Notes: a model not told the origin generated them from the letters alone. DNA of 64,000 bases from Escherichia coli (GCF_050320075.1 NZ_CP190019.1), one strand, 5' to 3'. Counted from the stretch's first letter, positions 5,199-43,682 are shown. Translations and numbers: made by a program.

Positions 5199-6158
5199 TT
5201 AAAAATAATACTTCAGACCAGCTGTGGTCATAAAGTTATAGCTTTCAATGCCTGCACCATTTTTGGTGTGATCAGATATATTCAAATTTCTGGAGTACAG
5301 AGAAGTATCACCTTTCTTATTAGTAATACGGTTCCATGTTCCTTCGACATAAACTTTAGCTGCAGGTGTAATATAATAACCAGCATGTAGTGAGACAGAG
5401 TAATAGTTCTGATTATTTACATCGCTACGATAGGTGATCCTTTTCTCAGGGTTGTAATGCTCATCATTATCCGATGCCTTCACCCATCCGCTATATTTGA
5501 AACTCCCCCCGAACTCAAAGCTATCATACCGATAATTACCGGTTAACCCTATATAGGGCATTTTAAAGTGTTGTTTGTAGCCTATAGCTCTTTCACCATC
5601 TGGAAATGATCCCGTTTCATCCCGGAAGCCTCCCTCACTACTATAGATATAAGAGCCTCCTTTTGCTGTAAAGCTATAACGATTTTCCTGGTAACCAGCC
5701 ATAAGACCTAACTGATAGTCTGGTTGATTCAGGAGCCATCCCTTAATATTCAGGTCGAATTCATTAGCAAAATTTAGACGGGTATTCGGATGTTTACTCT
5801 CATCAGTCCAGGTTCCGGGATTGCTCGTATCCAGCCAGTCCCTGTCCACCATATTGCCTCCACGACCAGCTAATGTTGTCCACCCTGAGGCACCGACAGA
5901 TACTCTGGGTAACAGATCCCAGTTAAATGCCCCCTTGACAATTGGCGCATTACTGTATTTCCAGTCCAGCTGGCTGGCTTTGCGCCCTTTTTCTTCAGGC
6001 AGATAAACCCGTTCTTTGGCCTTGCCACTTAAAGTGCCAAAATCAATCTCCGTACTGATTTTCTCCGGTGTAAAAGAAAGCCCAGTATCAGAAGCCAGTG
6101 CAGCAAACGCTACAGGAGCTGAGAGTGCAGTAGCAAGAATCTTTAAGTACATAGACAA
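5199..6158 (-). CDS. ompT: Plasmid-borne omptin outer-membrane protease OmpT (319 aa)
   Basis: Signal peptide followed by omptin-like beta-barrel sequence (…WTDESKHPNTRLNF…GLKYYF end). Confidence 0.8.
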   Translation of the reverse strand: MSMYLKILATALSAPVAFAALASDTGLSFTPEKISTEIDFGTLSGKAKERVYLPEEKGRKASQLDWKYSNAPIVKGAFNWDLLPRVSVGASGWTTLAGRGGNMVDRDWLDTSNPGTWTDESKHPNTRLNFANEFDLNIKGWLLNQPDYQLGLMAGYQENRYSFTAKGGSYIYSSEGGFRDETGSFPDGERAIGYKQHFKMPYIGLTGNYRYDSFEFGGSFKYSGWVKASDNDEHYNPEKRITYRSDVNNQNYYSVSLHAGYYITPAAKVYVEGTWNRITNKKGDTSLYSRNLNISDHTKNGAGIESYNFMTTAGLKYYF

Positions 6159-7440
6159 GTTAACTCCATTCCACTCGTTTGTTTTTGATAAATATTTTTT
6201 TATTTACTCGTAGTAGTCAACTGAAAAATGCTGTTTTGTTTAACGTTTGTTTACAATGTGGCCACATGTCGCTTTATTTATTCCCTTTTATGTCAGAATA
6301 TCAGGGGAGTCAGTCAAACCCGGTATGATTACTGCCCCGGTCATCCATGTTCCAGAAAATATCAGGGCATACAGGGCGCTGGTAACTGCGAATAAGGCCC
6401 TGGTCGGACACTTTATGCCGGGAACGTCTGTAACGTGGAAACCGGTACCTTCTTCCTGGGGTTATTTTGTTAACTCTTATCTAAAGGGAGACAAAATGGC
6501 CAAATCCTGCGATTATGAAGCAATCAGGGTCTTTATTAGCGTTAATGTCGGCAAATATACCAATAACGCCATTACAGTTAATTATTCAGATAGCGTTTGT
6601 GCGACAAGACATTACCATTCGACGAAAATAAACTCAGGTGGTTGATATCAGAAATCAACCGTGGCTCCACCTACAAAAAAAGTTGCTGGTTTATAAATCC
6701 CTCCTTTCTGATTAATAAGAAAACTAATAACATATGAGTGTGATTACTTGTTCAGATAAGTTAATTATCTTAGTGATTGATATTTATTTTGTTTCAGTGA
6801 AAATGATGCTTTTATTAGAAAATTTATAAATACCAAGTCGGTGGTGTTTATTAGTGTAATGGAGGGGAGTGCGTAAATCGTTCATGTAACACTTCCTTCC
6901 AATAATACTTTATAAATCAATAGATGTATGATTACTTATTTCCTGAAATATCATATATATTGCTATATTTCTTAACGAGATATTCTTATTTTATTGATAA
7001 TTGCATCTCTTTTATTTAATGTAAAGCTTTCTTATTAATCTTCTAATGTATTGCAAAATGGTAGATGCTGAGTAATCAACAGACTTGTATGTAAAGTCAA
7101 GATTAACGTTGCTAAAGCACGCATCAATTTTCTGATAAAAGGATGGGGTTGTTTTTTTCGATAAAAAAAATTCTTGTCTAACCACTGGTGAAATAAGATT
7201 ATTATTACCCCGAATTAATACTGAGCCTAACAATAGAATACAAAAAAAACAAAATGCTTTAAATAAGGGGAGCACTATAAGTTATCCTCTTTACTTTATG
7301 CTTACCAACTCACTTATGTTACTTTATAACATAACCCATCTTGCGTTGTAAACAGACTCGTTTTAGTTCCATGCACCTTTTGAGATCGTGACCAAATAAT
7401 GGCGTTAGTGATGTTCTTCCAGTGTCATATGGTTAAGTAG

Positions 7441-7712
7441 TTGATATGGCGTTCACTGTTATATTCTGACAACCAGTTTGCCGCCAGTTCCCGCTTTTCA
7501 TCCAGCGTTCTGAACAGACAAAAACCGAGTATTTTTGTTCGGTATGTCCGGTTAAAACTCTCGATAAAAGCGTTCTGCGCCAACTTACCTGATTGGGTAA
7601 TCTCCAGTTTTACTACATGTTTTTCTGCGCATTACGTCCGTGTTGGATAAAAAAAATCCTGGCCATAATCTATGCGAATCATAGCTGGATAGACATGGTT
7701 TTCCGCAATCCT
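7441..7712 (-). mobile_element. IS3-family-like transposase fragment (remnant)
   Basis: Reverse-strand translation gives …QNAFIESFNRTYRTKILGFCLFRTLDEKRELAANWLSEYNSER…, typical of a DDE transposase C-terminal region; abuts the IS629-like element. Confidence 0.4.
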
Positions 7713-7766
7713 TGAACCGCCCCGGGAATCCTGGAGACTAAACTCCCTGAGAAAGAGGTAAACAGG

Positions 7767-8093
7767 ATGACTAAAAATACTCGTTTTTCCCCCGAAGTCC
7801 GTCAGAGGGCGATTCGTATGGTTCTGGAAAGTCAGGGCGAATATGACTCACAGTGGGCGGCAATTTGTTCCATTGCCCCAAAGATTGGCTGTACACCGGA
7901 GACTCTGCGTGTCTGGGTACGCCAGCATGAGCGGGATACCGGAGGCGGTGATGGCGGGCTCACCACCGCTGAACGTCAGCGTCTGAAAGAGCTGGAACGT
8001 GAAAATCGTGAACTGCGCCGCAGTAACGATATCCTTCGCCAGGCTTCCGCTTATTTTGCGAAGGCGGAGTTCGACCGCCTCTGGAAAAAATGA
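7767..8093 (+). CDS. IS629-like OrfA (108 aa)
   Basis: [50 protein letters not shown]… matches IS629/IS1203 OrfA as recalled. Confidence 0.85.
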
Positions 8094-8507
8094 TGCCACT
8101 GCTGGATAAGCTGCGTGAGCAGTACGGGGTCGGACCGCTATGCAGCGAACTGCATATTGCCCCGTCAACGTATTACCACTGTCAGCAACAGCGACATCAT
8201 CCGGATAAACGCAGTGCCCGTGCGCAGCGCGATGACTGGCTGAAGAAAGAGATACAGCGCGTATACGATGAAAATCACAAGGTATACGGTGTGCGTAAAG
8301 TCTGGCGTCAGTTGTTACGGGAAGGTATCAGAGTGGCCAGATGCACTGTGGCACGTCTCATGGCAGTTATGGGACTTGCCGGTGTTCTCCGTGGTAAAAA
8401 GGTCCGTACGACCATCAGCCGGAAAGCCGTTGTCGCAGGCGACCGCGTAAACCGTCAGTTCGTGGCAGAACGTCCTGACCAGTTGTGGGTGGCTGATTCT
8501 ACTTACG
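8090..8507 (+). CDS. IS629-like OrfB, 5' portion (exon 1, interrupted by intron)
   Basis: [20 protein letters not shown]…QLWVADSTY then reading frame enters intron sequence. Confidence 0.75.
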
Positions 8508-9163
8508 GTGTGCCCGGAGTTCAGGGCGGGCATGGATGCTTAAATGAACCGCGAGTCTGTCTGGAATATTGAACCGGTAACTCACGATGAGAAACCCAAC
8601 AATCCCACCGGGTGTGACGGTGGAGAACCTGAGCGGCAGTGACCTGCGGCATGCCCGCAGGGTGATGTAACCCGCTGACAACGGGGATTGAGGCGAGATC
8701 ACTAAGCCGAGATGATCCTCAAGGTTAAGTACTGAAAGGCTGAAGAACATAAACCCGTTAATCCGCCTCTGTGGGTTGAAAACGTCACCACGGCCTACGT
8801 GATCTGACAGGCCGTGCAGGAGGAACTGGCAGTGATACGTAAGCACTGCCGGTCGAAGGTGTTTTGACATGTATGCGAAACACCGGGGCAGCAGCGTCTA
8901 TCACGCTTGCGTTGCTGACTTCTGCCAACTTGCGGCAAGCAAGGATAAAGAGTGCGACGGGCAGCCTCCTCAGTATGCCTGAGTCCAGGCAGGTAAACCG
9001 GGGAAGGTCAGCGACGGATGTTAAGGGGGCATGGCTCCGATGACGCGCTGGCTGGCGGAGCTTCCGTAGTAGTCCGCGATGGGGAAAGCCCATTACATGG
9101 CGAAGGGAAGCAGTTTGAATGTGTTTGCGACGTGAATTAACTGGCCTAACGAGGTGAAGACCT

Positions 9164-10687
9164 TTGATAATCAGCGAAATGCAACGCAAGCTTGCCACAT
9201 GGGCAGCCACCGATCCGTCCCTACGGATTCAACGGCTGCTGCGTCTGATAACACAACCAGAATGGCTGGCTGAAGCGGCGCGGATCACGCTTTCATCAAA
9301 GGGGGCGCATACCCCCGGCGTTGATGGCGTGAACAAAACAATGCTACAGGCCAGACTGGCTGTTGAGCTGCAAATCCTCAGGGATGAATTACTCTCAGGC
9401 CACTACCAGCCCTTGCCCGCCAGACGGGTTTACATCCCTAAAAGCAACGGCAAACTGCGACCACTGGGTATCCCCGCGTTGCGGGATCGTATTGTTCAGC
9501 GGGCCATGCTGATGGCGATGGAGCCGATATGGGAGAGTGATTTTCATACGCTCTCATATGGCTTCCGGCCTGAGCGCAGTGTCCACCACGCGATCCGCAC
9601 GGTGAAATTACAGCTCACAGACTGCGGTGAAACCCGGGGACGCTGGGTGATTGAAGGCGACCTGTCCAGTTACTTCGACACCGTACATCATCGACTGCTG
9701 ATGAAGGCTGTACGCCGCAGGATCAGTGACGCACGTTTCATGACTCTGCTGTGGAAAACCATCAAGGCGGGACATATCGATGTCGGTCTCTTTCGGGCGG
9801 CCAGTGAAGGTGTGCCACAGGGCGGTGTTATATCGCCGCTATTATCGAACATCATGCTGAATGAGTTCGATCAATACCTGCATGAGCGCTACCTGAGCGG
9901 GAAAGCCAGAAAAGATCGGTGGTACTGGAATAACAGTATCCAACGGGGCCGAAGTACGGCGGTCAGAGAAAACTGGCAGTGGAAACCCGCGGTGGCGTAC
10001 TGCCGCTATGCCGATGATTTTGTCCTCATCGTCAAAGGCACCAAAGCACAGGCGGAAGCCATCAGGGAGGAGTGTCGGGGTGTGCTCGAAGGCAGTCTGA
10101 AACTCAGGCTGAACATGGATAAGACTAAAATCACCCATGTTAATGACGGCTTTATCTTTCTGGGGCACAGGATCATTCGCAAACGCAGTCGTTATGGCGA
10201 GATGCGAGTGGTCTCAACGATCCCGCAGGAGAAAGCCAGAAACTTCGCCGCATCGCTGACAGCACTGTTATCAGGCAACTACAGTGAAAGCAAAGTCGAT
10301 ATGGCTGAACAACTCAACCGAAAACTGAAAGGCTGGGCCATGTTCTATCAGTTCGTTGATTTTAAGGCCAAAGTCTTCAGTTATATCGACCGTGTCGTGT
10401 TCTGGAAGCTGGCTCACTGGCTGGCCCGCAAATACCGTACAGGTATCGCTTCCCTGATGAGGTGGTGGTGTAAATCACCGAAACCGGGTCAGAGTAAAAC
10501 GTGGGTTTTATTTGGTAAAACCAATCACGGCAAGCTCAGCGGCGAAATACTGTACCGGTTGGTGGGGCAAGGCAAGAAGCTGTTCCGCTGGCGGCTACCC
10601 GAAGGTAATCCCTATCTGAGGACGGAGACCAGAAACACGTATACATCGCGCTTTACAGAAGTGGCAATGGCGTTCGCCAGCATTTAA
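9164..10687 (+). CDS. Group II intron-encoded reverse transcriptase/maturase (507 aa)
   Basis: RT motifs including …AYCRYADDFVLIV… (YADD), maturase-like C-terminal region. Confidence 0.85.
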   Translation: MIISEMQRKLATWAATDPSLRIQRLLRLITQPEWLAEAARITLSSKGAHTPGVDGVNKTMLQARLAVELQILRDELLSGHYQPLPARRVYIPKSNGKLRPLGIPALRDRIVQRAMLMAMEPIWESDFHTLSYGFRPERSVHHAIRTVKLQLTDCGETRGRWVIEGDLSSYFDTVHHRLLMKAVRRRISDARFMTLLWKTIKAGHIDVGLFRAASEGVPQGGVISPLLSNIMLNEFDQYLHERYLSGKARKDRWYWNNSIQRGRSTAVRENWQWKPAVAYCRYADDFVLIVKGTKAQAEAIREECRGVLEGSLKLRLNMDKTKITHVNDGFIFLGHRIIRKRSRYGEMRVVSTIPQEKARNFAASLTALLSGNYSESKVDMAEQLNRKLKGWAMFYQFVDFKAKVFSYIDRVVFWKLAHWLARKYRTGIASLMRWWCKSPKPGQSKTWVLFGKTNHGKLSGEILYRLVGQGKKLFRWRLPEGNPYLRTETRNTYTSRFTEVAMAFASI

Positions 10688-10692
10688 ATGGA

Positions 10693-10726
10693 GAGCCGGA
10701 TGCGCTGAAAGGTGCACGTCCGGTTC
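10693..10726 (+). ncRNA. Group II intron domain V (catalytic hairpin)
   Basis: GAGCCGGATGCGCTGAAAGGTGCACGTCCGGTTC fits the domain V consensus; lies 51 nt upstream of the intron 3' end. Confidence 0.7.
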
Positions 10727-10749
10727 GGGGAGGAGAGGCAGGGAAATAG

Positions 10750-11250
<501 letters not shown>

Positions 11251-11292
11251 GTTCACAGATAAAACACTCTCCAGGAAACCCGGGGCGGTTCA

Positions 11293-11690
<398 letters not shown>

Positions 11691-11722
11691 TTAGTGTATG
11701 ATGGTGTTTTTGAGGTGCTCCA

Positions 11723-11998
11723 GTGGCTTCTGTTTCTATCAGCTGTCCCTCCTGTTCAGCTACTGACGGAGTGGTGCGTAACGGCAAAAGCACCGCCGGA
11801 CATCAGCGCTATCTCTGCTCTCACTGCCGTAAAACATGGCAACTGCAGTTCACTTACACCGCTTCTCAACCCGGTACGCACCAGAAAATCATTGATATGG
11901 CCATGAATGGCGTTGGATGCCGGGTAACTGCCCGCATTATGGGCGTTGGCCTCAACACGATTTTACGTCACTTAAAAAACTCAGGCCGCAGTCGGTAA
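11723..11998 (+). CDS. insA: IS1 InsA
   Basis: 91-aa [43 protein letters not shown]…. Confidence 0.85.
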
Positions 11999-12420
11999 CC
12001 TCGCGCATACAGCCGGGCAGTGACGTCATCGTCTGCGCGGAAATGGACGAACAGTGGGGCTATGTCGGGGCTAAATCGCGCCAGCGCTGGCTGTTTTACG
12101 CGTATGACAGGCTCCGGAAGACGGTTGTTGCGCACGTATTCGGTGAACGCACTATGGCGACGCTGGGGCGTCTTATGAGCCTGCTGTCACCCTTTGACGT
12201 GGTGATATGGATGACGGATGGCTGGCCGCTGTATGAATCCCGCCTGAAGGGAAAGCTGCACGTAATCAGCAAGCGATATACGCAGCGAATTGAGCGGCAT
12301 AACCTGAATCTGAGGCAGCACCTGGCACGGCTGGGACGGAAGTCGCTGTCGTTTTCAAAATCGGTGGAGCTGCATGACAAAGTCATCGGGCATTATCTGA
12401 ACATAAAACACTATCAATAA
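11917..12420 (+). CDS. insB: IS1 InsB frame (expressed as an InsAB fusion by frameshifting)
   Basis: 167-aa ORF overlapping insA in the -1 frame. Confidence 0.8.
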
Positions 12421-36386: not shown

Positions 36387-37178
36387 TTATGCGTGTCTGT
36401 TTTTCAGCATTGTGACAGCATCGGACTCAGGAATCGAAAACTGCACCCGGTGCCGTGCAGCCACATCCAGCGCAAACACCTTCGTGTACACCTCTGTCGA
36501 ACTAATCGACTTGTGCCCCATCAGGCTCTGCAGCACCTTCAGCGGAATACCAGCATACAGCATATGCATCGCGTAGGAATGGCGGAAAGTATGTGGGGTA
36601 ACCGGAACAGAGAACGTCACGCCGTCGGCCGCAGCGGCCTCTACAGCTTCATTCAGCCAGGTGCGAACTGTGCGGTCGGTGATTCCCCAGATGCGCGCCT
36701 TCTCCATTCTTCCGGTTCGTTTGTTTCTGCGCTCCAGTGGGATTTTCAGCGTGGCCACCATCATCTGCAGTTGGCTGACGTATTGTGTATCGGACAGGGG
36801 AACCAGGCGATGCACCTGACTGCCAGCAGGGACACGGCCTGCCGTTCTGGTCGCTTTTTCAGTCCGTTGTTTGAGCGTGGCCAGCTGTACGAACGGATAT
36901 GGCGGCGCCAGAGAAAAATCTCCCCGCGTCAGCGCCAGCGCTTCGTTTATACGTGCGCCCGTGTTCCACAGGGTGGCCAGCAACATTTTGCGGTGCAGAT
37001 CCGGTACATAGTGGAGCAGGGCGCTGATCTCCGGCGCCAACAGATATTTTGGTAATTCGTCCTGCACAAGTGCCATCTGACGTAGTGCCAGCGCAGCCGG
37101 GTAATCAATGGCAACAGGTAATGTTGCCGGAGGCGTTAAAAAAGAACCAGGCAGGGAAAGCAATTGTGGGCCACTCAT
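36387..37178 (-). CDS. Tyrosine site-specific recombinase (ResD/XerD-like), 263 aa
   Basis: C-terminal catalytic region …HTFRHSYAMHMLYAGIPLKVLQSLMGHKSISSTEVYTKV…; paralogous to int at 1263..2003. Confidence 0.8.
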   Translation of the reverse strand: MSGPQLLSLPGSFLTPPATLPVAIDYPAALALRQMALVQDELPKYLLAPEISALLHYVPDLHRKMLLATLWNTGARINEALALTRGDFSLAPPYPFVQLATLKQRTEKATRTAGRVPAGSQVHRLVPLSDTQYVSQLQMMVATLKIPLERRNKRTGRMEKARIWGITDRTVRTWLNEAVEAAAADGVTFSVPVTPHTFRHSYAMHMLYAGIPLKVLQSLMGHKSISSTEVYTKVFALDVAARHRVQFSIPESDAVTMLKNRHA

Positions 37179-37864
37179 GATGTCCCCTTTATGAAATCCT
37201 CAATCTCTTGCTCGGTCTTTTTAGACTTCTTTACCATTTCGTACTCCTTTTGGAGTGTTTTACCTCTGGCTTTCAACAATACCAACCTCGTTGGCGATAG
37301 TGTATCGGAAAGGCCGTGCAGAGGGAGGCCACATAACATTCTCAGTTCTCGTGATAACCGCAGTGCTTTTACTCCCAACATAGCTGCGTTTTTATGCAAA
37401 CTATATTCACCCGCTCCACCATAAGGAGTATCTTCAACAAACACATTATCTACACACACGACAGCTTCGTAGCTGAGAACAGAGAGTTCGCTGAGCCTAT
37501 ACATCAGGCCAGAAGGAAGGGAGCGCCAGTTACCAGATACCGGGGAATAATCGATTTCCGGTAATAAGAACTCAGCTTCTCCTCTGCCATCCTGATCGTG
37601 CTCCACAGTTGCTGTTGCTGCTGGAGCGCAACGCTGCGCAAATCGCTCAAGTAAAAAAACCAGCTCTGTACTAATGTAAAGACGCTCGCTGGCCAGCTTC
37701 GCTGCTGCAGTTCTCTCCTCACGTCTGAGTGTGAAGTGGTGAGTAAGGAACACCGCTCCGACAGCAGATGCGATGGTCGATACAGCTGTAATTATCTGCG
37801 GCCCCAGACTGGCGCTGTCCTTCACCACCTTCACGCCTTCGGTCGCAATAAACCAGTCAGCCAT
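37175..37864 (-). CDS. Hypothetical membrane-anchored protein (229 aa)
   Basis: N-terminal hydrophobic helix (IITAVSTIASAVGAVFLTHHF); stop overlaps recombinase start (ATGA). Confidence 0.5.
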   Translation of the reverse strand: MADWFIATEGVKVVKDSASLGPQIITAVSTIASAVGAVFLTHHFTLRREERTAAAKLASERLYISTELVFLLERFAQRCAPAATATVEHDQDGRGEAEFLLPEIDYSPVSGNWRSLPSGLMYRLSELSVLSYEAVVCVDNVFVEDTPYGGAGEYSLHKNAAMLGVKALRLSRELRMLCGLPLHGLSDTLSPTRLVLLKARGKTLQKEYEMVKKSKKTEQEIEDFIKGTS

Positions 37865-37907
37865 GTTTATTCCTTTATTGTTGAGAAATCCCGCCTTCTG
37901 TATGTAT

Positions 37908-38258
37908 TCAGCGGTCGGCAGCCAGTTCTTCAGCCAGCTTCACAAAGCCTTTGTGCTCAGTCTGCAGGTAATGGCTGTAAATCCGGGCATCACGTTCTGT
38001 GAGCCCGGATGGATTGCCGGTGAAGTAACGTTGCAGCACCGCAATACAGTGATTGTAGGTATCGAGATCATATTCCCAGTTTCCCAGCTCACCGGCCGCA
38101 TCCAGCTCCCGGCGAAACTGCTCGTATTTACGGAGCAGAATGCCAAGACCTAATTCTGTTGCAGCATAAACATTATTTTCTCCTGGCGCGGAAATCGCAT
38201 TACGGATTTTTTCAAAAGCATAACTGAAATCATTTCTCTCATTGAATGCAGTAAACAT
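37908..38258 (-). CDS. Hypothetical protein (116 aa)
   Basis: ORF 44 bp upstream of the 229-aa gene, same strand. Confidence 0.45.
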   Translation of the reverse strand: MFTAFNERNDFSYAFEKIRNAISAPGENNVYAATELGLGILLRKYEQFRRELDAAGELGNWEYDLDTYNHCIAVLQRYFTGNPSGLTERDARIYSHYLQTEHKGFVKLAEELAADR

Positions 38259-38437
38259 GTCCTTTCCTCAGTTGAATAGTTAGCCGTGCAATTTTACCAC
38301 ACCTCAATCATCGCCAGATGAGTGCCACTCTGTTGAGAACAGTGACTTTCACAAAAAATGAATTTCACATACTGAAATAATAAGTAGCCATATAGAAACG
38401 CAGTTAAATTACCGGAGAGCCGTTTCCGTCAGATCCG

Positions 38438-38466
38438 ACTTTCCGGAATATCACAACTTTCCGGAA
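38438..38466. promoter_or_regulatory. Two copies of palindromic octamer TTCCGGAA (within ACTTTCCGGAA direct repeats)
   Basis: ACTTTCCGGAA at 38438-38448 and 38456-38466, about 180 bp upstream of the 116-aa gene. Confidence 0.3.
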
Positions 38467-38710
38467 GTGTACCACGCTGAGAAAATAATCATATCGCTGT
38501 TTTCCGCCCCTGCGCGGCGCATCACAGGTCAGGGAGATGACACAACATATAGTGTCATGAGCAGCTGAATGAGATACCACATGTTGTGCTGACAGGAGGT
38601 GGCGTTGTGTGGGGGGAGAGGAAGATCCGTAACCAGGAGTTTTCGGATCTTCCTGAAGAAAAAGAAAGATTAATGTAAAATTAACAATAATTAACAGCCA
38701 TTGATAACTA

Positions 38711-38745
38711 AAACAGATTAATGCACATTAAGCATTAATCTGTTT
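38711..38745. repeat. Perfect inverted repeat (14-bp arms, 7-bp spacer) with ATTAATGC half-site
   Basis: AAACAGATTAATGC-ACATTAA-GCATTAATCTGTTT, 45 bp downstream of the KAP NTPase stop; followed by a T-run on the + strand. Confidence 0.6.
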
Positions 38746-38789
38746 TTATTTTTGTATTTAAGGCAATTAAAACACCGTATCAATGATGC

Positions 38790-41700
38790 TCAGTCATAAA
38801 ACTCAACATCACGGACATAGCGTACGGGAGTAATAACAATTTTGTGTTCATCACGCCCTGACCCCATTTTTGGCGGCTGAATAAATCCAAGATTGCTGAT
38901 TAATTCGGCCACTTCCCACAAATCCACGGAGTGAGGGATTTTCCTGAACCTGTCATGTGGTAACAGTCCATGATAGCTCTCATCAGCAAAACTGTTCAGC
39001 ACCACGCAAAGCGCGTCTTTGCCAGCATCCCCGGCAACCAGACAACGTTTAAGCAGTGTCAGGCGCAGATCATCGTCACCCATCCAGGGACTCAGTTCTG
39101 CCAGAATATCTAATGACAGCAGGTAGCTCTTATCAAGAATTCCCGGTTTGTTATCACGCAACCAGCGTAAAGCGGCAACTTTTATATTCATACCGATTAG
39201 CTTGTGACGAAAAAGTTCGCTTGCCAGTTCTTCATCAAAGTCACCCTCGATATAAAAAATATCTTCTGGCTCCTGGGTAATAATCTCAGGACGCTGGGCA
39301 ATAAGGTTACCAAGCAGAGTATTCATCCTGTTAATATCATCAACATTTCCACAGAGAGCATTAAACAACACCGTAAAGACATTAACTGTCGGTGCCAGTT
39401 TTTTCTCTGAACATAACAGTTCAGCATTTCGCAATGGAATGTTTTCAGGCACATCGATAATAACAACGTTTAAATTACTCAGTACTTTCAGTAAAGCTTC
39501 TTCTGAAATGACTGGCGAGCAAATTAATTCAGAAATAAAATTATTAAATATTCCTGTATCATTTATGACTATATCAGATGGTTCAAATTCAAAGTGTTTC
39601 TCATTTACCCACTGAACAAGTTCACCGGAAGTATTAATTGATGTATCATGCAATAAATGAATAATATTATCAAAGGATGGAAAAATCCTGTCATGCTGCA
39701 ACAGCATGCTATAGATATTTCTCCCTGAAGCATTATTGTCCGCACACTCTGAACGATTAATAATATCATCCAGATTATTTATACAAAAATCCATTTTGGC
39801 TATAATCTGTTCAACAACAGTCATTGAGACTTCAGAAGAATTCAGCAATTCAGGAATACGATCAATCTCTTCCGATTCAATAAATACCGATAAAATAAAA
39901 TCTTCTATGTTAGTCCACAGAACTTCTGTTAATTCAGAAATAGCCAGGGACTCGAGACAATGAAACGGATAAAGAGAGAATGACATTCTTTCTTCATTCT
40001 TGTCTTGCGTCAGGCAAAGATAAACATTTTTAAGATTACTGACGGAATATTTGAATAATCCTGCACCCGCAATTTTCCTGATAACAGAACACTTCTCGTC
40101 TCCCACATCACCTGGAATATATGAAACTGAAAGTGTATTATCTTTCAACACTTCAAAAAACGCATCACCATATCCTTTTGGCACAGCAGTAATAAGAATT
40201 GGGGAGGAATCTATAAGTTCACCGATACGTTTATTAATCTCAACCGATTGCCAGATATTTGATTTTTCAGTCAGGCATAACAGGTGTGCCGCTATTTCCT
40301 GAACAAAAAACTTTTGCTCGGGTGTGCGTTCTTCTGACGCACATAAATGTGCCAGCAATCTGTTCAGTATATGTTCATCTGACATAAAAATCTCCAGGTA
40401 ACGCAGGCGAACATACGTTGTGAAATCGTTCTGCATCAACATCAGCAAACTAACCACACGCTGGCTACCCGTCTGACTCAGTAATGCCATTATATTGTTT
40501 TTCAGGGTATCAGGGTCATTATCAATCAGCCATCTGATAACAGCAGGATGTTGAGCATTGTCACGCTGCAGAACCCCCAGCTTTTTGAGTCGTTCAACAA
40601 TATTATTAACGTTATCAAGATGGAATGAGAATGTTTTTTCCGGACCTTTACCAGACATAACATCCTTAAGAAATAAATTATCTGTCTCACTCAGCCCTCC
40701 GGGAATGAAGATTGAGCGATAGGACATGTAATCTGTTGATAAATAACCACTTGATAACAGAAAAAATATAAAGTCAATCTGTTCATGTTCCGACTGAATC
40801 GTCAGGACACCTGTATCCTCTTTCTTCTTTATCCAGGCAACAAAGCCTTCATTTGTCATCTTTTCTGCTATATCAGCTACAGTTCCGGAAAGAATTTCGG
40901 TCCTCAATGACTCCAGACTGGAAATATTATTTTTCACTCTGGTTATATTATCAACAGATTTAGTTTCAATTAAATGGCATCGTTTTTCATACTGCTGCTT
41001 CAGTTTTTCTGTATCCCGCTGATTTATCATGAGAAAAATTTGTCTGTTATAGGGGGTAACGACCTGAATATTTTCCTTATCTAAAAGCATGAGAAATTCA
41101 TCTTCATCTTGTATCAAATCATCAAGACTTATTTGCCTTCCTTCTGTATAAAAAACAAGCGCGCCGCTATAATTTTTACTAAGGTAAGGCATGAGCAGTT
41201 CTTCGCGCAGATTTTCCCGGTTTGCGAGTTTTTCATTTGTTATCGCTACAAGTGACTGTGCCATATCCTCAAGTTCGTTATTTGCAGAATGTAATAATTC
41301 ATTCTGAATTTCATGGTCTAAGTAGCTTTGAATAAAATGATAAAGAACACCTTTTTTACTATCTATACCATGATAATCTTCCGCACAGAGATTTTTATAT
41401 GCTATCATGGCAAGTAGTTTGGCCAGATTTTCCCGACTATTGACTAAATTCTGATAGAGTCGAAACTCATTTGTAATATTATGCATTACACGCATATTGG
41501 GAATAAATGTCGCAATACGAGAAATACATTCGCTTAAGTTATTATTTATCTCTTCTTCTTTGAATTTTTTAACAAAATGCTCATAAGCATTCTGGTTATC
41601 CATCACTGGAATAACAGGCATAACAAAATCAAAGAATTTCGTTCTTGACTCTGCTGAGTTGAAAATACCATCTCTGACAGCATAAATAAATTTTACAGGT

Positions 41701-42611
41701 TTTCTGTCAGAAAGGCAGTTATTAATAATTTGATTGATTTCCCGCAATTTCACGAAAATCCGGCCATTGTTAAAACGGTCAAGATCTTCGAATATCACTA
41801 CATCATATTTAGTCGAATCAAAAAAATAGACAATTTCATCAATATAGACATTAAGTAAAGAAGGTGATGATGCCCGGGTTGTAACAGCGCCTTTCAGAAG
41901 GTCCACTTTATCAAGACTTACTTTCCTGTCAAATATACCGATACGATGTAACTGGTTCAAAAGCAGGCATAACGATCCCATCACAGATGCCACTGCACCG
42001 GACACACGCACCCCAAACGGGCATTCAAGAAGGTAACGGGCGAATGCTCCCGGCAAAGATAGCTTTGTTGTAACGTAATCCGGCGCAAGGAAAAATAAAG
42101 CAGCTCCACTCAGTAAAATGGTTCCTGTCAGAAAAGACGCAGACCGCAATATTTGTCCCGCAGTCACATCTGATATACGGTCAATGCGGGAACAGGGAAG
42201 CTCATGCTTTTTATTTTTGTAGAGTATTTGTTGCAGAATACTGTATTCAATAGATTTTTCAACACTACCAGTATTTTTCGTCCCTTCGTCACTACTGCTG
42301 TCCCCATTACTTTCATCCACATGTCTCTGCATATCAAAATCAGCAAGAGAAACGGTTAACACCCGCAGTGTCCCATTGTGAGCTTTGCACCATGTTTTTA
42401 ATACTGAGCTTTTCCCTGCCCCATACGGCCCGGTAACAGCAATATTCCGGATATCCGGATGTTCATAAGCATAATTAAGCGCGCTGATATAACAGCCTGC
42501 TTTATCTGAGTCGAGTTCTGTCGGAGTCAGTGCTTCATAGCTCACTGCATTTGCCTCAGCATGATCACTATCGGCAACGATCGGTGTCAGCCACGGTGTG
42601 GACATTATCAT
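38790..42611 (-). CDS. KAP-family P-loop NTPase with intra-domain transmembrane helices (1273 aa); function unknown
   Basis: Walker A NIAVTGPYGAGKSS; hydrophobic helices (FLTGTILLSGAALFFLAP, VRVSGAVASVMGSLCLLLNQL) inserted before Walker B-like YDVVIFEDLDRF; about 950-aa C-terminal region without assignable motif. Confidence 0.65.
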   Translation of the reverse strand: MIMSTPWLTPIVADSDHAEANAVSYEALTPTELDSDKAGCYISALNYAYEHPDIRNIAVTGPYGAGKSSVLKTWCKAHNGTLRVLTVSLADFDMQRHVDESNGDSSSDEGTKNTGSVEKSIEYSILQQILYKNKKHELPCSRIDRISDVTAGQILRSASFLTGTILLSGAALFFLAPDYVTTKLSLPGAFARYLLECPFGVRVSGAVASVMGSLCLLLNQLHRIGIFDRKVSLDKVDLLKGAVTTRASSPSLLNVYIDEIVYFFDSTKYDVVIFEDLDRFNNGRIFVKLREINQIINNCLSDRKPVKFIYAVRDGIFNSAESRTKFFDFVMPVIPVMDNQNAYEHFVKKFKEEEINNNLSECISRIATFIPNMRVMHNITNEFRLYQNLVNSRENLAKLLAMIAYKNLCAEDYHGIDSKKGVLYHFIQSYLDHEIQNELLHSANNELEDMAQSLVAITNEKLANRENLREELLMPYLSKNYSGALVFYTEGRQISLDDLIQDEDEFLMLLDKENIQVVTPYNRQIFLMINQRDTEKLKQQYEKRCHLIETKSVDNITRVKNNISSLESLRTEILSGTVADIAEKMTNEGFVAWIKKKEDTGVLTIQSEHEQIDFIFFLLSSGYLSTDYMSYRSIFIPGGLSETDNLFLKDVMSGKGPEKTFSFHLDNVNNIVERLKKLGVLQRDNAQHPAVIRWLIDNDPDTLKNNIMALLSQTGSQRVVSLLMLMQNDFTTYVRLRYLEIFMSDEHILNRLLAHLCASEERTPEQKFFVQEIAAHLLCLTEKSNIWQSVEINKRIGELIDSSPILITAVPKGYGDAFFEVLKDNTLSVSYIPGDVGDEKCSVIRKIAGAGLFKYSVSNLKNVYLCLTQDKNEERMSFSLYPFHCLESLAISELTEVLWTNIEDFILSVFIESEEIDRIPELLNSSEVSMTVVEQIIAKMDFCINNLDDIINRSECADNNASGRNIYSMLLQHDRIFPSFDNIIHLLHDTSINTSGELVQWVNEKHFEFEPSDIVINDTGIFNNFISELICSPVISEEALLKVLSNLNVVIIDVPENIPLRNAELLCSEKKLAPTVNVFTVLFNALCGNVDDINRMNTLLGNLIAQRPEIITQEPEDIFYIEGDFDEELASELFRHKLIGMNIKVAALRWLRDNKPGILDKSYLLSLDILAELSPWMGDDDLRLTLLKRCLVAGDAGKDALCVVLNSFADESYHGLLPHDRFRKIPHSVDLWEVAELISNLGFIQPPKMGSGRDEHKIVITPVRYVRDVEFYD

Positions 42612-43033
42612 TGATACAATTCCGTTGTTGTTTTAGTTACATTTTACTGGTTTTATTCCGCTTTTATCTCAAGCATGGATCTCTGAATTTCTTAACTTAA
42701 CCAGACGAGAAGAAAGCAGGCAAAGGCAACCGTACTTACCTGAAGAGACGACTGTGATAGCATAAATCGATTTTTAAGACGATAATTTTCCTCTTACCGT
42801 ACGTTTTCGTACGGTTGGCCCTCAAACCCCTATCAGGCCTGCCGTGGAGATTTTGTGGTGCGTCTCGACGGCAGCACCTGTCTGCAGTTATGGAATAAAG
42901 AAGGCAGAGTGGTACGCCGGGAGGGCGATCCGCTGGAAGTGGCGCAGTGGCTGCAGGCCTGTCATGATGCCGGAATAGAAGTTCGTGTACAGGTTAATGA
43001 AAGCGTCACTCCGTAAAAACATGCCAGCACGGT

Positions 43034-43381
43034 TTACACATCATCCCATGATGGCAGCCGCTTAACTTTCCTGCGCCACCAGTGGAAAGAGGCCATGAGC
43101 AGTCCGAACAAAAAACCCCCCGTGATACTTATAATAATGGCCTCACCTGCCACCATTCCTGACGGCCCCCAGTAGATAAACCACATTGCACATCCCCAGG
43201 AAATGCCCCATAAGCCCCCCGTCAGCACCGTGACCTGCCAGAACGGCATAAAGGGTAATGGCGGAAGCCGGATACCCAGCCGCCAGAGAATACGCAGAAG
43301 AGGAGGGGCATAATTGCTCCGCCACATCTTTTTGCTGTCCATCAGGGCAATGGCCCGGGCTTTTTTCTGCTCAAAGGTCAC
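43034..43381 (-). CDS. Hypothetical small membrane protein (115 aa)
   Basis: Two hydrophobic Trp-rich segments (VTVLTGGLWGISWGCAMWFIYWGPSG; IIISITGGFLFGLLMASFHWW). Confidence 0.45.
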   Translation of the reverse strand: MTFEQKKARAIALMDSKKMWRSNYAPPLLRILWRLGIRLPPLPFMPFWQVTVLTGGLWGISWGCAMWFIYWGPSGMVAGEAIIISITGGFLFGLLMASFHWWRRKVKRLPSWDDV

Positions 43382-43621
43382 AGGAGCACCTCCGTTCCAT
43401 GATGTAAACGTGACACAGCTTATTGTTATTGATTATTATTATCATGCTGTGATTATGTTGTCATGCACCGGTACACTGACAAAAGAAAGGGAGAACAGGA
43501 GGCCGGCTGATGAACAGGAAATATTATCTTAATCCGCGTAAGCGGGCCGTGAGGGCCGCTTACAAGCGTGTATGAGATCAGTTTGGATATTCGAAATTAT
43601 TGTACGTTTAACGCACCATAC

Positions 43622-43655
43622 ATTAATGCTAATGTATGCATACATTAGCATTAAT
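43622..43655. repeat. 34-bp perfect palindrome ATTAATGCTAATGTATGCATACATTAGCATTAAT
   Basis: Self-complementary over its full length; 27 bp downstream of the 160-aa ORF stop. Confidence 0.7.
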
Positions 43656-43682
43656 GATGAAGGAAAAGAATAACAATGGCAG

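Follow-up and report, generated by a model that had tools for sequence, protein, structure and literature searches.

The window considered here, by which we mean the whole 64,000-nucleotide stretch of Escherichia coli DNA (GCF_050320075.1, NZ_CP190019.1), carries on its minus strand a long open reading frame (ORF) for a 1273-residue protein which sequence comparison identifies as Tmn. This anti-phage defence system, made up of one gene, is already known and not new. An earlier note on this DNA, made from the sequence alone, had read the same frame, together with a small membrane protein encoded upstream, as a candidate undescribed phage-exclusion module of the KAP family. The gene and the predicted parts of its product are as follows.

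38790..42611, minus strand: tmn ORF, 1273 uninterrupted codons with an ATG start and a TGA stop.
41340..42491, minus strand: YobI-ATPase domain (PF20693) by Pfam, the most conserved part of the family.
42405..42446, minus strand: Walker A motif NIAVTGPYGAGKSS, residues 56-69, by motif position.
42078..42143, minus strand: predicted transmembrane helix 1, residues ~157-178, inside the NTPase domain (hydropathy peak 1.86; AlphaFold2 (AF2) helix 151-175).
41949..42017, minus strand: predicted transmembrane helix 2, residues ~199-221, inside the NTPase domain (hydropathy peak 1.68; AF2 helix 199-224).
41772..41807, minus strand: Walker B motif YDVVIFEDLDRF (VVIFEDLDRF), residues 269-280, by motif position.
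38793..41339, minus strand: predicted cytosolic arms, residues 425-1273, comprising a proximal coiled-coil and small alpha/beta unit (~434-600) and then a distal HEAT/ARM-like alpha-solenoid.
40659..40784, minus strand: conserved island EQIDFIFFLLSSGYLSTDYMSYRSIFIPGGLSETDNLFLKDV, residues 610-651, where the proximal arm meets the distal one, from the alignment of 77 homologues.

The PADLOC model PDLC02220 'Tmn' matches the protein from end to end (E=0, 2057.3 bits, protein residues 1-1273 against profile positions 1-1273), and an artefact in the PADLOC and Pfam identity is implausible because of the 2057-bit score. RefSeq holds the identical protein as WP_064055658.1 under the product name 'anti-phage transmembrane ATPase', which is also given on plasmids with 100% identical DNA. 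Pfam returned YobI-ATPase PF20693 (6.7e-104, residues 41-424, model positions 1-363 of 363) and no other significant domain, and none of the NCBIfam or PHROGs models matched the 1273-residue protein. The exact protein occurs on at least 1000 contigs of a public collection, so that the frame is not a chance one. Every feature compared with the Tmn system was found, namely the profile match, the YobI domain, the two inserted helices, the key residues, the helical arms and the single-gene organization. The frame and length given in the earlier note are therefore borne out by the ORF call, its membrane-anchored P-loop NTPase with helices inside the NTPase domain is confirmed by the motif and helix positions, and its assignment to anti-phage defence on an F-type ColV plasmid agrees with the Tmn identity. 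Its description of the gene as undescribed does not survive: of the two tools that it proposed for the region, DefenseFinder and PADLOC, the latter was run and returned the known system, for which a RefSeq name and experimental papers also exist. The system also goes by the name TmnA, and by 'Gao_Tmn' in DefenseFinder.

The family label requires a distinction. Among all Pfam domains at E≤10, KAP_NTPase (PF07693) gave no match to Tmn, and the positive control, PifA of the F plasmid (12446..14671 of its locus), was recovered by KAP_NTPase at 6.3e-43. BLASTP of Tmn against PifA reached a best E of 2.0, the insignificant local alignment pairing VVIFEDLDRF of Tmn with IVVMDDLDRL of PifA, and hhalign of a 77-sequence Tmn profile against PifA aligned 32 columns at Walker A only (probability 26%). 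Aravind et al. 2004 named in their title an hhhhDDLDR-type Walker B and inserted transmembrane segments as features of the KAP family. The earlier note had argued from those two features, and both are present in Tmn, with EDLDR in Walker B; they are also common to the YobI family, and published sources differ on where Tmn belongs. Earlier papers name it a KAP NTPase (bioRxiv 10.1101/2022.08.21.504612; PMC11846954), so that the label of the earlier note is loose and not absurd, and the YobI family has been called phylogenetically distinct (PMC13001434). We would file Tmn under YobI, with 'KAP-like' denoting resemblance and not demonstrated membership. The remark in the earlier note that size and C-terminal region differ from PifA stands, PifA having 741 residues and the window protein 1273.

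Transmembrane segments were called by a 19-residue Kyte–Doolittle mean above 1.5 together with AF2 helices. Residues 157-178 and 199-221 are the only two stretches above that threshold, and both helices sit between Walker A and Walker B because residues 157-221 fall within 69-269; this is the arrangement that the earlier note had described, with a Walker A followed by hydrophobic helices and a Walker B-like motif. The C-terminal part, which it had taken to be helical and free of assignable motifs, fits that description, residues 401-1273 (873 residues) containing no Pfam domain. The AF2 model, covering residues 1-1200, has a mean predicted local distance difference test score of 78.3, with values of 80-93 for most of residues 410-1200. 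Residues 425-1200 are mainly helical in this model, with a small beta-containing unit and three long helices at ~486-599 followed by ~40 short helices. A Foldseek search against the PDB, which the earlier note had also proposed, gave weak matches only (best E 7.9e-4, TM score ≤0.15), all of them HEAT/ARM solenoids and including karyopherins, CAND1, Scc2, Pds5 and ATR. The predicted anatomy agrees with the published description of Tmn, with no close relative among solved structures, and we infer that the cytosolic arms act as the sensor of phage proteins.

Conservation across the family is concentrated in the NTPase. A census at E≤1e-10 yielded 1867 Tmn-family proteins, with PF20693 the sole domain among the matches listed, and 76 homologues of 1253-1318 residues were aligned with the window protein to give the 77-sequence alignment. 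Within it, Walker A residues G61, G64, G66, K67, S68 and S69 and the Walker B residues F274-E275-D276-L277-D278-R279 are invariant. A second conservation peak coincides with the island at residues 610-651, where M629, R632, S633, F635, G638, L640 and D644 are likewise invariant; none of the residues of this island is among those mutated in the study of Tmn-25, the homologue from strain ECOR25 (PMC13001434). The island is possibly a hinge or coupling element.

Fifteen positions mutated in Tmn-25 could be compared directly, and all 15 keep the same residue at the same number in the window protein:

Kept positions: G66, K67, Y262, D276, R279, N297, K325, F326 and R374.
Kept positions, continued: F506, Y541, R544, L867, L33 and K183.

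These cover every residue whose mutation abolished or altered Tmn-25 defence, together with two neutral controls; mutagenesis of Tmn-25 showed G66 and K67 of Walker A and D276 and R279 of Walker B to be required for defence (PMC13001434). The complete match shows that the functional residues are intact in the window allele. As a proof of allele identity the same numbering check was rejected, for an allele only 83% identical passes it too.

That second allele lies on an IncI-gamma/K1 plasmid of E. fergusonii (6001..9807 of its locus) and served for pairwise comparison. The two proteins are 94% identical in the NTPase, with 98-100% at residues 251-400, and their identity is 52-76% at residues 451-600 and 62-68% at residues 951-1050. 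The ratio of non-synonymous to synonymous substitution rates (dN/dS), estimated by the Nei–Gojobori method, is 0.07 in the NTPase core outside the transmembrane insert, 0.27 in the insert, 0.47 (the highest value) at residues 451-600, 0.14 at residues 601-750 and 0.22-0.28 beyond. The whole protein is, on these estimates, under purifying selection, with constraint most relaxed, or selection diversifying, in the proximal arm. The 77-sequence conservation profile repeats this pattern of a conserved NTPase engine and variable arms, the latter being the most variable part. Synonymous divergence between the two alleles is itself uneven by more than two-fold, dS being 0.23 in the NTPase core and reaching 0.50-0.60 over residues 451-600 and 751-1050, which hints at mosaic recombination between tmn alleles rather than uniform divergence.

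Surveyed by megablast against plasmids, tmn is present in 171, and 151 of the records hold it in full length at ≥99% identity. Among complete E. coli genomes, 137 of 5426 (~2.5%) match tmn, and 138 of the 141 places are plasmid-borne; the one chromosomal copy examined is an integrated plasmid segment. By tblastn, Tmn homologues occur on 667 plasmids. A full-length paralogue of ~38% identity, labelled 'pcar', hypothetical or 'YobI family P-loop NTPase', is carried by ~490 enterobacterial plasmids. The tmn coordinates 38790..42611 recur in NZ_CP123241.1. In pSCZE2 (NZ_CP051224.1, E. coli SCZE5) the gene coordinates around tmn equal those of the window; the two molecules are related and not identical, with 1357 mismatches in the first 50000 positions and a loss of collinearity after 50 kb.

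The setting of the gene was delimited by comparison with pECOH45, a Tmn-less IncI1 plasmid that served as the reference for the cassette edges. The features outside the reading frame are as follows.

38635..42830, no strand: tmn cassette relative to the Tmn-less backbone (blastn against pECOH45; aligned blocks stop at 38634 and resume at 42831).
42831..43016, plus strand: 3' gene remnant at the right cassette junction (RefSeq annotation on a closely related plasmid).
38710..38746, no strand: perfect inverted repeat, arms 38710-38724 and 38732-38746, 15 nt each and 100% complementary, with a 7-nt loop.
43034..43381, minus strand: 115-residue membrane protein DUF6404 (Pfam 1.9e-37).

The cassette of ~4.2 kb holds tmn with its upstream region and terminator and nothing else, and has a GC content of 38.5% against 50.6% and 52.0% in the flanks. 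The parent gene of the remnant, encoding 196 residues, is intact beside DUF6404 in pECOH45, pSEEH1578_01 and pCE2050_A; the intact 196-residue protein gave a weak phrog match only, and the 85-residue product of the gene before it gave none. On this comparison, tmn arrived as a cassette that displaced the gene for 85 residues and most of that for 196 residues. We also considered a formal defence hotspot between the recombinase gene downstream and DUF6404; the sampled plasmids show simple replacement within a common backbone, and a hotspot was not demonstrated. The perfect palindrome that the earlier note had seen after the stop is confirmed with its 15-bp arms. It begins 43 nt past the tmn stop, both strands end in a U run, and the RNA around it has a folding energy of -30.6 kcal/mol (z = -4.9 relative to shuffled sequences); it is likely an intrinsic, possibly bidirectional, terminator. 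An Rfam scan of 37800..43700 gave sub-threshold chance matches only.

Two further non-coding elements lie at the cassette edges. Just inside the right junction, 42796..42815 forms a perfect inverted repeat, its 8-bp arms separated by a loop of 4 nt (ACCGTACG TTTT CGTACGGT); it could terminate transcription of the truncated gene on the opposite strand or be a site of recombination. On the other side, the non-coding segment 38377..38634, between tmn and a gene for a 116-residue protein, is 92% identical to the pECOH45 block and contains several imperfect inverted repeats (38541-38588, 38619-38654) with no Rfam match; it may be a regulatory region or a recombinase target site. The 116-residue gene was considered as a travelling companion of tmn and rejected, being a gene of the plasmid backbone present in 1561 plasmids that mostly lack tmn. 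It adjoins the diverged tmn allele too, and its other neighbour is often VapBC. In p1658/97 (6927..12351) and pKPN101-IT (6913..7556), this gene and a gene for a 229-residue protein occur without tmn and with VapBC at the adjacent position, a BREX system (brxL, pglZ) lying slightly farther on in p1658/97.

Papers on Tmn credit its discovery to Gao et al. 2020 (Science 369:1077), and it is stated to inhibit T2, P1 and other phages (PMC11846954). Wu et al. cloned tmn from ECOR25, found it plasmid-borne and reported synergy with Gabija, Septu I and PrrC (bioRxiv 10.1101/2022.08.21.504612), and Yamashita et al. 2025 described a phage anti-Tmn protein and escape mutations in nmad5 of Dhillonvirus (PMC11846954). 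In these assays tmn was cloned alone (bioRxiv 10.1101/2022.08.21.504612; PMC11846954), and phage resistance by Tmn homologues depends on Walker A (PMC13001434; bioRxiv 10.1101/2022.08.21.504612; PMC11846954). A 2026 preprint by Wu et al. places Tmn among the YobI-family NTPases in 10 clades, of which clade Ib is ~1270 residues long, enterobacterial and plasmid-enriched (PMC13001434). The same work reports a Tmn-25 decamer at 11.6 Å with an AlphaFold3 (AF3)-guided model and a central opening of ~25 Å, HEAT/ARM-like repeats in its proximal and distal arms, and mutants that have lost function (PMC13001434). Upon infection of Tmn cells, ATP falls without leakage or depolarization, Mg2+ is exported and the cells plasmolyse; RIIB of T2 is the direct trigger and binds the Tmn arms, and Gabija and Septu are activated by the collapse in ATP (PMC13001434).

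The steps of a mechanism for the window allele can be transferred from these experiments on Tmn-25, and all would apply by homology. Two helices between Walker A and Walker B would anchor the NTPase at the inner membrane, within a decamer arranged as a pentamer of dimers. The cytosolic helical arms would bind an early phage protein, which for T2 would be the membrane-associated replisome protein RIIB, and productive engagement would turn on ATP hydrolysis. Mg2+ would then be exported and plasmolysis would follow, without membrane depolarization or leakage. The drop in ATP would also activate the ATP-sensing systems Gabija, Septu I and PrrC where present; the annotation of a closely related plasmid contains none of the three in the part that corresponds to the window. 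By analogy we infer that the window allele behaves like Tmn-25, with the same phage range. We put the probability of the full reading, that is, Tmn working as in Tmn-25 and encoded in a low-GC cassette of 4.2 kb within a ColV-type IncF plasmid, at roughly 0.8.

Several observations weigh against this reading. The mechanism draws mainly on one 2026 preprint, an 11.6-Å map and an AF3-guided model in which no ion path is resolved, and a sequence search of the PDB gave no entry matching Tmn. Related clade Ib alleles differ in phage range (PMC13001434), and the specificity for RIIB and T2 is therefore not transferable to the window allele. Escape of Dhillonvirus maps to nmad5 and not to RIIB (PMC11846954), and the triggers therefore differ by phage. 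The alleles tested experimentally come from ECOR25, ECOR70, b1359 and Addgene PLG026; ECOR25 is absent among the 60 best complete-genome matches to tmn, and the window allele may not be the one tested from ECOR25. Expression in the plasmid is assumed, a sigma-70 promoter scan of the 220 bp upstream of tmn having given no convincing site.

The main live rival, improbable in our estimate and yet well ahead of the others, is that the antiviral effect consists in futile ATP hydrolysis. ATP depletion would then do the work, with Mg2+ release and plasmolysis as secondary consequences and no dedicated Mg2+ export: with less ATP, less Mg2+ would be chelated, and osmotic homeostasis, which depends on energy, would fail. 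Total ATP does fall sharply on infection with extracellular ATP unchanged (PMC13001434), the synergy with Gabija and Septu operates via ATP sensing (bioRxiv 10.1101/2022.08.21.504612; PMC13001434), and no ion-conducting path is resolved at 11.6 Å (PMC13001434). Pfam and hydropathy detected no transporter-like domain in Tmn, which has only two transmembrane helices per protomer. Against this stand the fall of intracellular and rise of extracellular Mg2+ in infected Tmn cells, where changes in K+ and Na+ are Tmn-independent, and the central opening of the decamer (PMC13001434). An exclusion on the analogy of PifA, to which the earlier note had pointed, in which Tmn would be a KAP-family relative and would abort infection through depolarization and nucleotide leakage, we regard as very improbable and already largely refuted. 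Such a reading is invited by the presence of Tmn, a P-loop NTPase associated with the membrane, on a plasmid of the F type, by its Walker B, akin to IVVMDDLDRL of PifA, and by the label 'KAP NTPase' that earlier papers gave to it (bioRxiv 10.1101/2022.08.21.504612; PMC11846954); the KAP_NTPase profile, BLASTP and hhalign nevertheless all fail to tie Tmn to PifA, and infected Tmn cells show no depolarization, propidium iodide uptake or ATP leakage (PMC13001434).

Equally remote, in our judgement, is a two-gene module in which Tmn needs, or is modulated by, the DUF6404 protein encoded upstream. The earlier note had proposed this protein as a partner, correctly describing it as a 115-residue, Trp-rich membrane protein upstream in the same orientation; it has 10 Trp (8.7%) and hydrophobic segments at ~50-69 and 73-102. 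Both products are membrane proteins, no terminator-like site was found between the two genes, the promoter-like site closest upstream of tmn on the minus strand (43464..43435) precedes DUF6404, and all 151 plasmids with the near-identical tmn allele keep DUF6404 adjacent. Read-through from DUF6404 into tmn is possible but would not make a functional module. The wider survey of plasmids, which the earlier note had itself proposed, decides otherwise, since DUF6404 does not co-occur with Tmn across alleles and contexts. It occurs in 2101 plasmids and tmn in 171, a ~12-fold difference, and in plasmids without Tmn its neighbours are loci for colicin Ia, E1-type immunity or colicin V. A YhaV/PrlF toxin–antitoxin pair, and not DUF6404, lies upstream of the 83%-identical allele, whose homology with the window stops at 42659, 48 bp upstream of the tmn start, and the remnant of the opposite-strand backbone gene (42831..43016) separates tmn from DUF6404 as a scar. 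Tmn alone protects heterologous hosts (bioRxiv 10.1101/2022.08.21.504612; PMC11846954), and there is no conserved operon around it (PMC13001434). DUF6404 is thus best described as an ordinary gene of the plasmid backbone, outside the cassette scar, and not as a partner. Least probable of all is that tmn serves mainly plasmid maintenance or competition, by an addiction-like or exclusion effect, with phage defence incidental. This would suit a gene found almost exclusively on conjugative plasmids (the 138 of 141 places above), embedded among toxin–antitoxin modules, colicin genes and a recombinase, at a position taken by VapBC in other plasmids with the flanking gene in common; Tmn nevertheless has specific phage triggers and is countered by an anti-Tmn protein of phage origin (PMC13001434; PMC11846954), Tmn homologues are also chromosomal in many genera, and no toxicity is reported without a trigger (PMC13001434).

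Beyond the cassette, several neighbouring genes on the minus strand deserve mention. The 229-residue hypothetical protein (37175..37864) matches the PADLOC candidate-defence model PDC-S67 at 1.2e-17 and phrog_33426, and its exact sequence occurs on at least 1000 contigs. The stop of its gene overlaps the start of that for a ResD/Xer-like tyrosine recombinase (36387..37178) by 4 bp (ATGA), which suggests translational coupling. Upstream of DUF6404 lie a gene for a 282-residue DEDDh 3'-5' exonuclease (44282..45130; PADLOC DEDDh 1.1e-27, PDC-S48 7.2e-21) and, following it, one for a 160-residue hypothetical protein with no family match (43683..44165). Together with tmn and the PDC-S67-like gene, these two could form a small plasmid defence cluster. 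Farther on, the type II toxin gene yacB (45176..45457) has no annotated upstream antitoxin gene, and a truncated Tn3-family transposase fragment begins at 45564, ~110 bp from yacB; the transposon may have severed the antitoxin gene and left yacB as an orphan toxin.

As a discovery the locus has no import, for the defence system is already catalogued, has a product name in RefSeq and a model in PADLOC, and is the subject of several experimental studies. Its occurrence on conjugative ColV/IncF virulence-resistance plasmids does make tmn a predictable obstacle to phage therapy in avian-pathogenic and extra-intestinal E. coli, for which the anti-Tmn protein and the nmad5 escape mutations are published counter-measures. 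What is useful here is the delimitation of the cassette, the finding that DUF6404 is no partner, the assignment by Pfam to YobI and not KAP, and the conserved motif at the arm junction. A small residue of possible novelty lies in that motif and in the specificity of this common plasmid allele. We hold only tentatively, and with more doubt than belief, that the island at residues 610-651 is a hinge passing trigger binding to the ATPase and that the trigger and phage range of the allele differ from those of Tmn-25; if true, this would refine a known system and not make a new kind.

Among known systems, Avs and other bacterial STAND NTPases resemble Tmn in joining a repeat-type sensor of phage proteins and an oligomerising P-loop NTPase in one polypeptide. 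They form tetramers, whereas Tmn is a membrane-embedded decamer without a separate effector domain, and Pfam found no STAND domain in Tmn, the nSTAND matches having E>1. PifA of plasmid F is also a phage-blocking P-loop NTPase encoded on an F-type plasmid, and like Tmn it has a DDLDR-type Walker B and acts in association with the membrane. The two belong to separate Pfam families (PF07693 for PifA) with no significant similarity beyond Walker A, and PifA, unlike Tmn, lacks transmembrane helices and acts by depolarization and leakage (PMC13001434). The ~38%-identical paralogue matches Tmn in architecture and in length, can be aligned with it over residues 5-1262 and carries PF20693; it forms a separate clade and is commoner on plasmids (~490) than the allele group of the window (~170). 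Closest is Tmn itself, as modelled by PADLOC and represented by Tmn-25 of ECOR25, from which the window protein shows no structural difference: it falls in the same ~1270-residue length class, is plasmid-borne in Enterobacteriaceae like clade Ib, and shares the YobI NTPase, the two inserted transmembrane helices, the helical solenoid arms and the single-gene organization.

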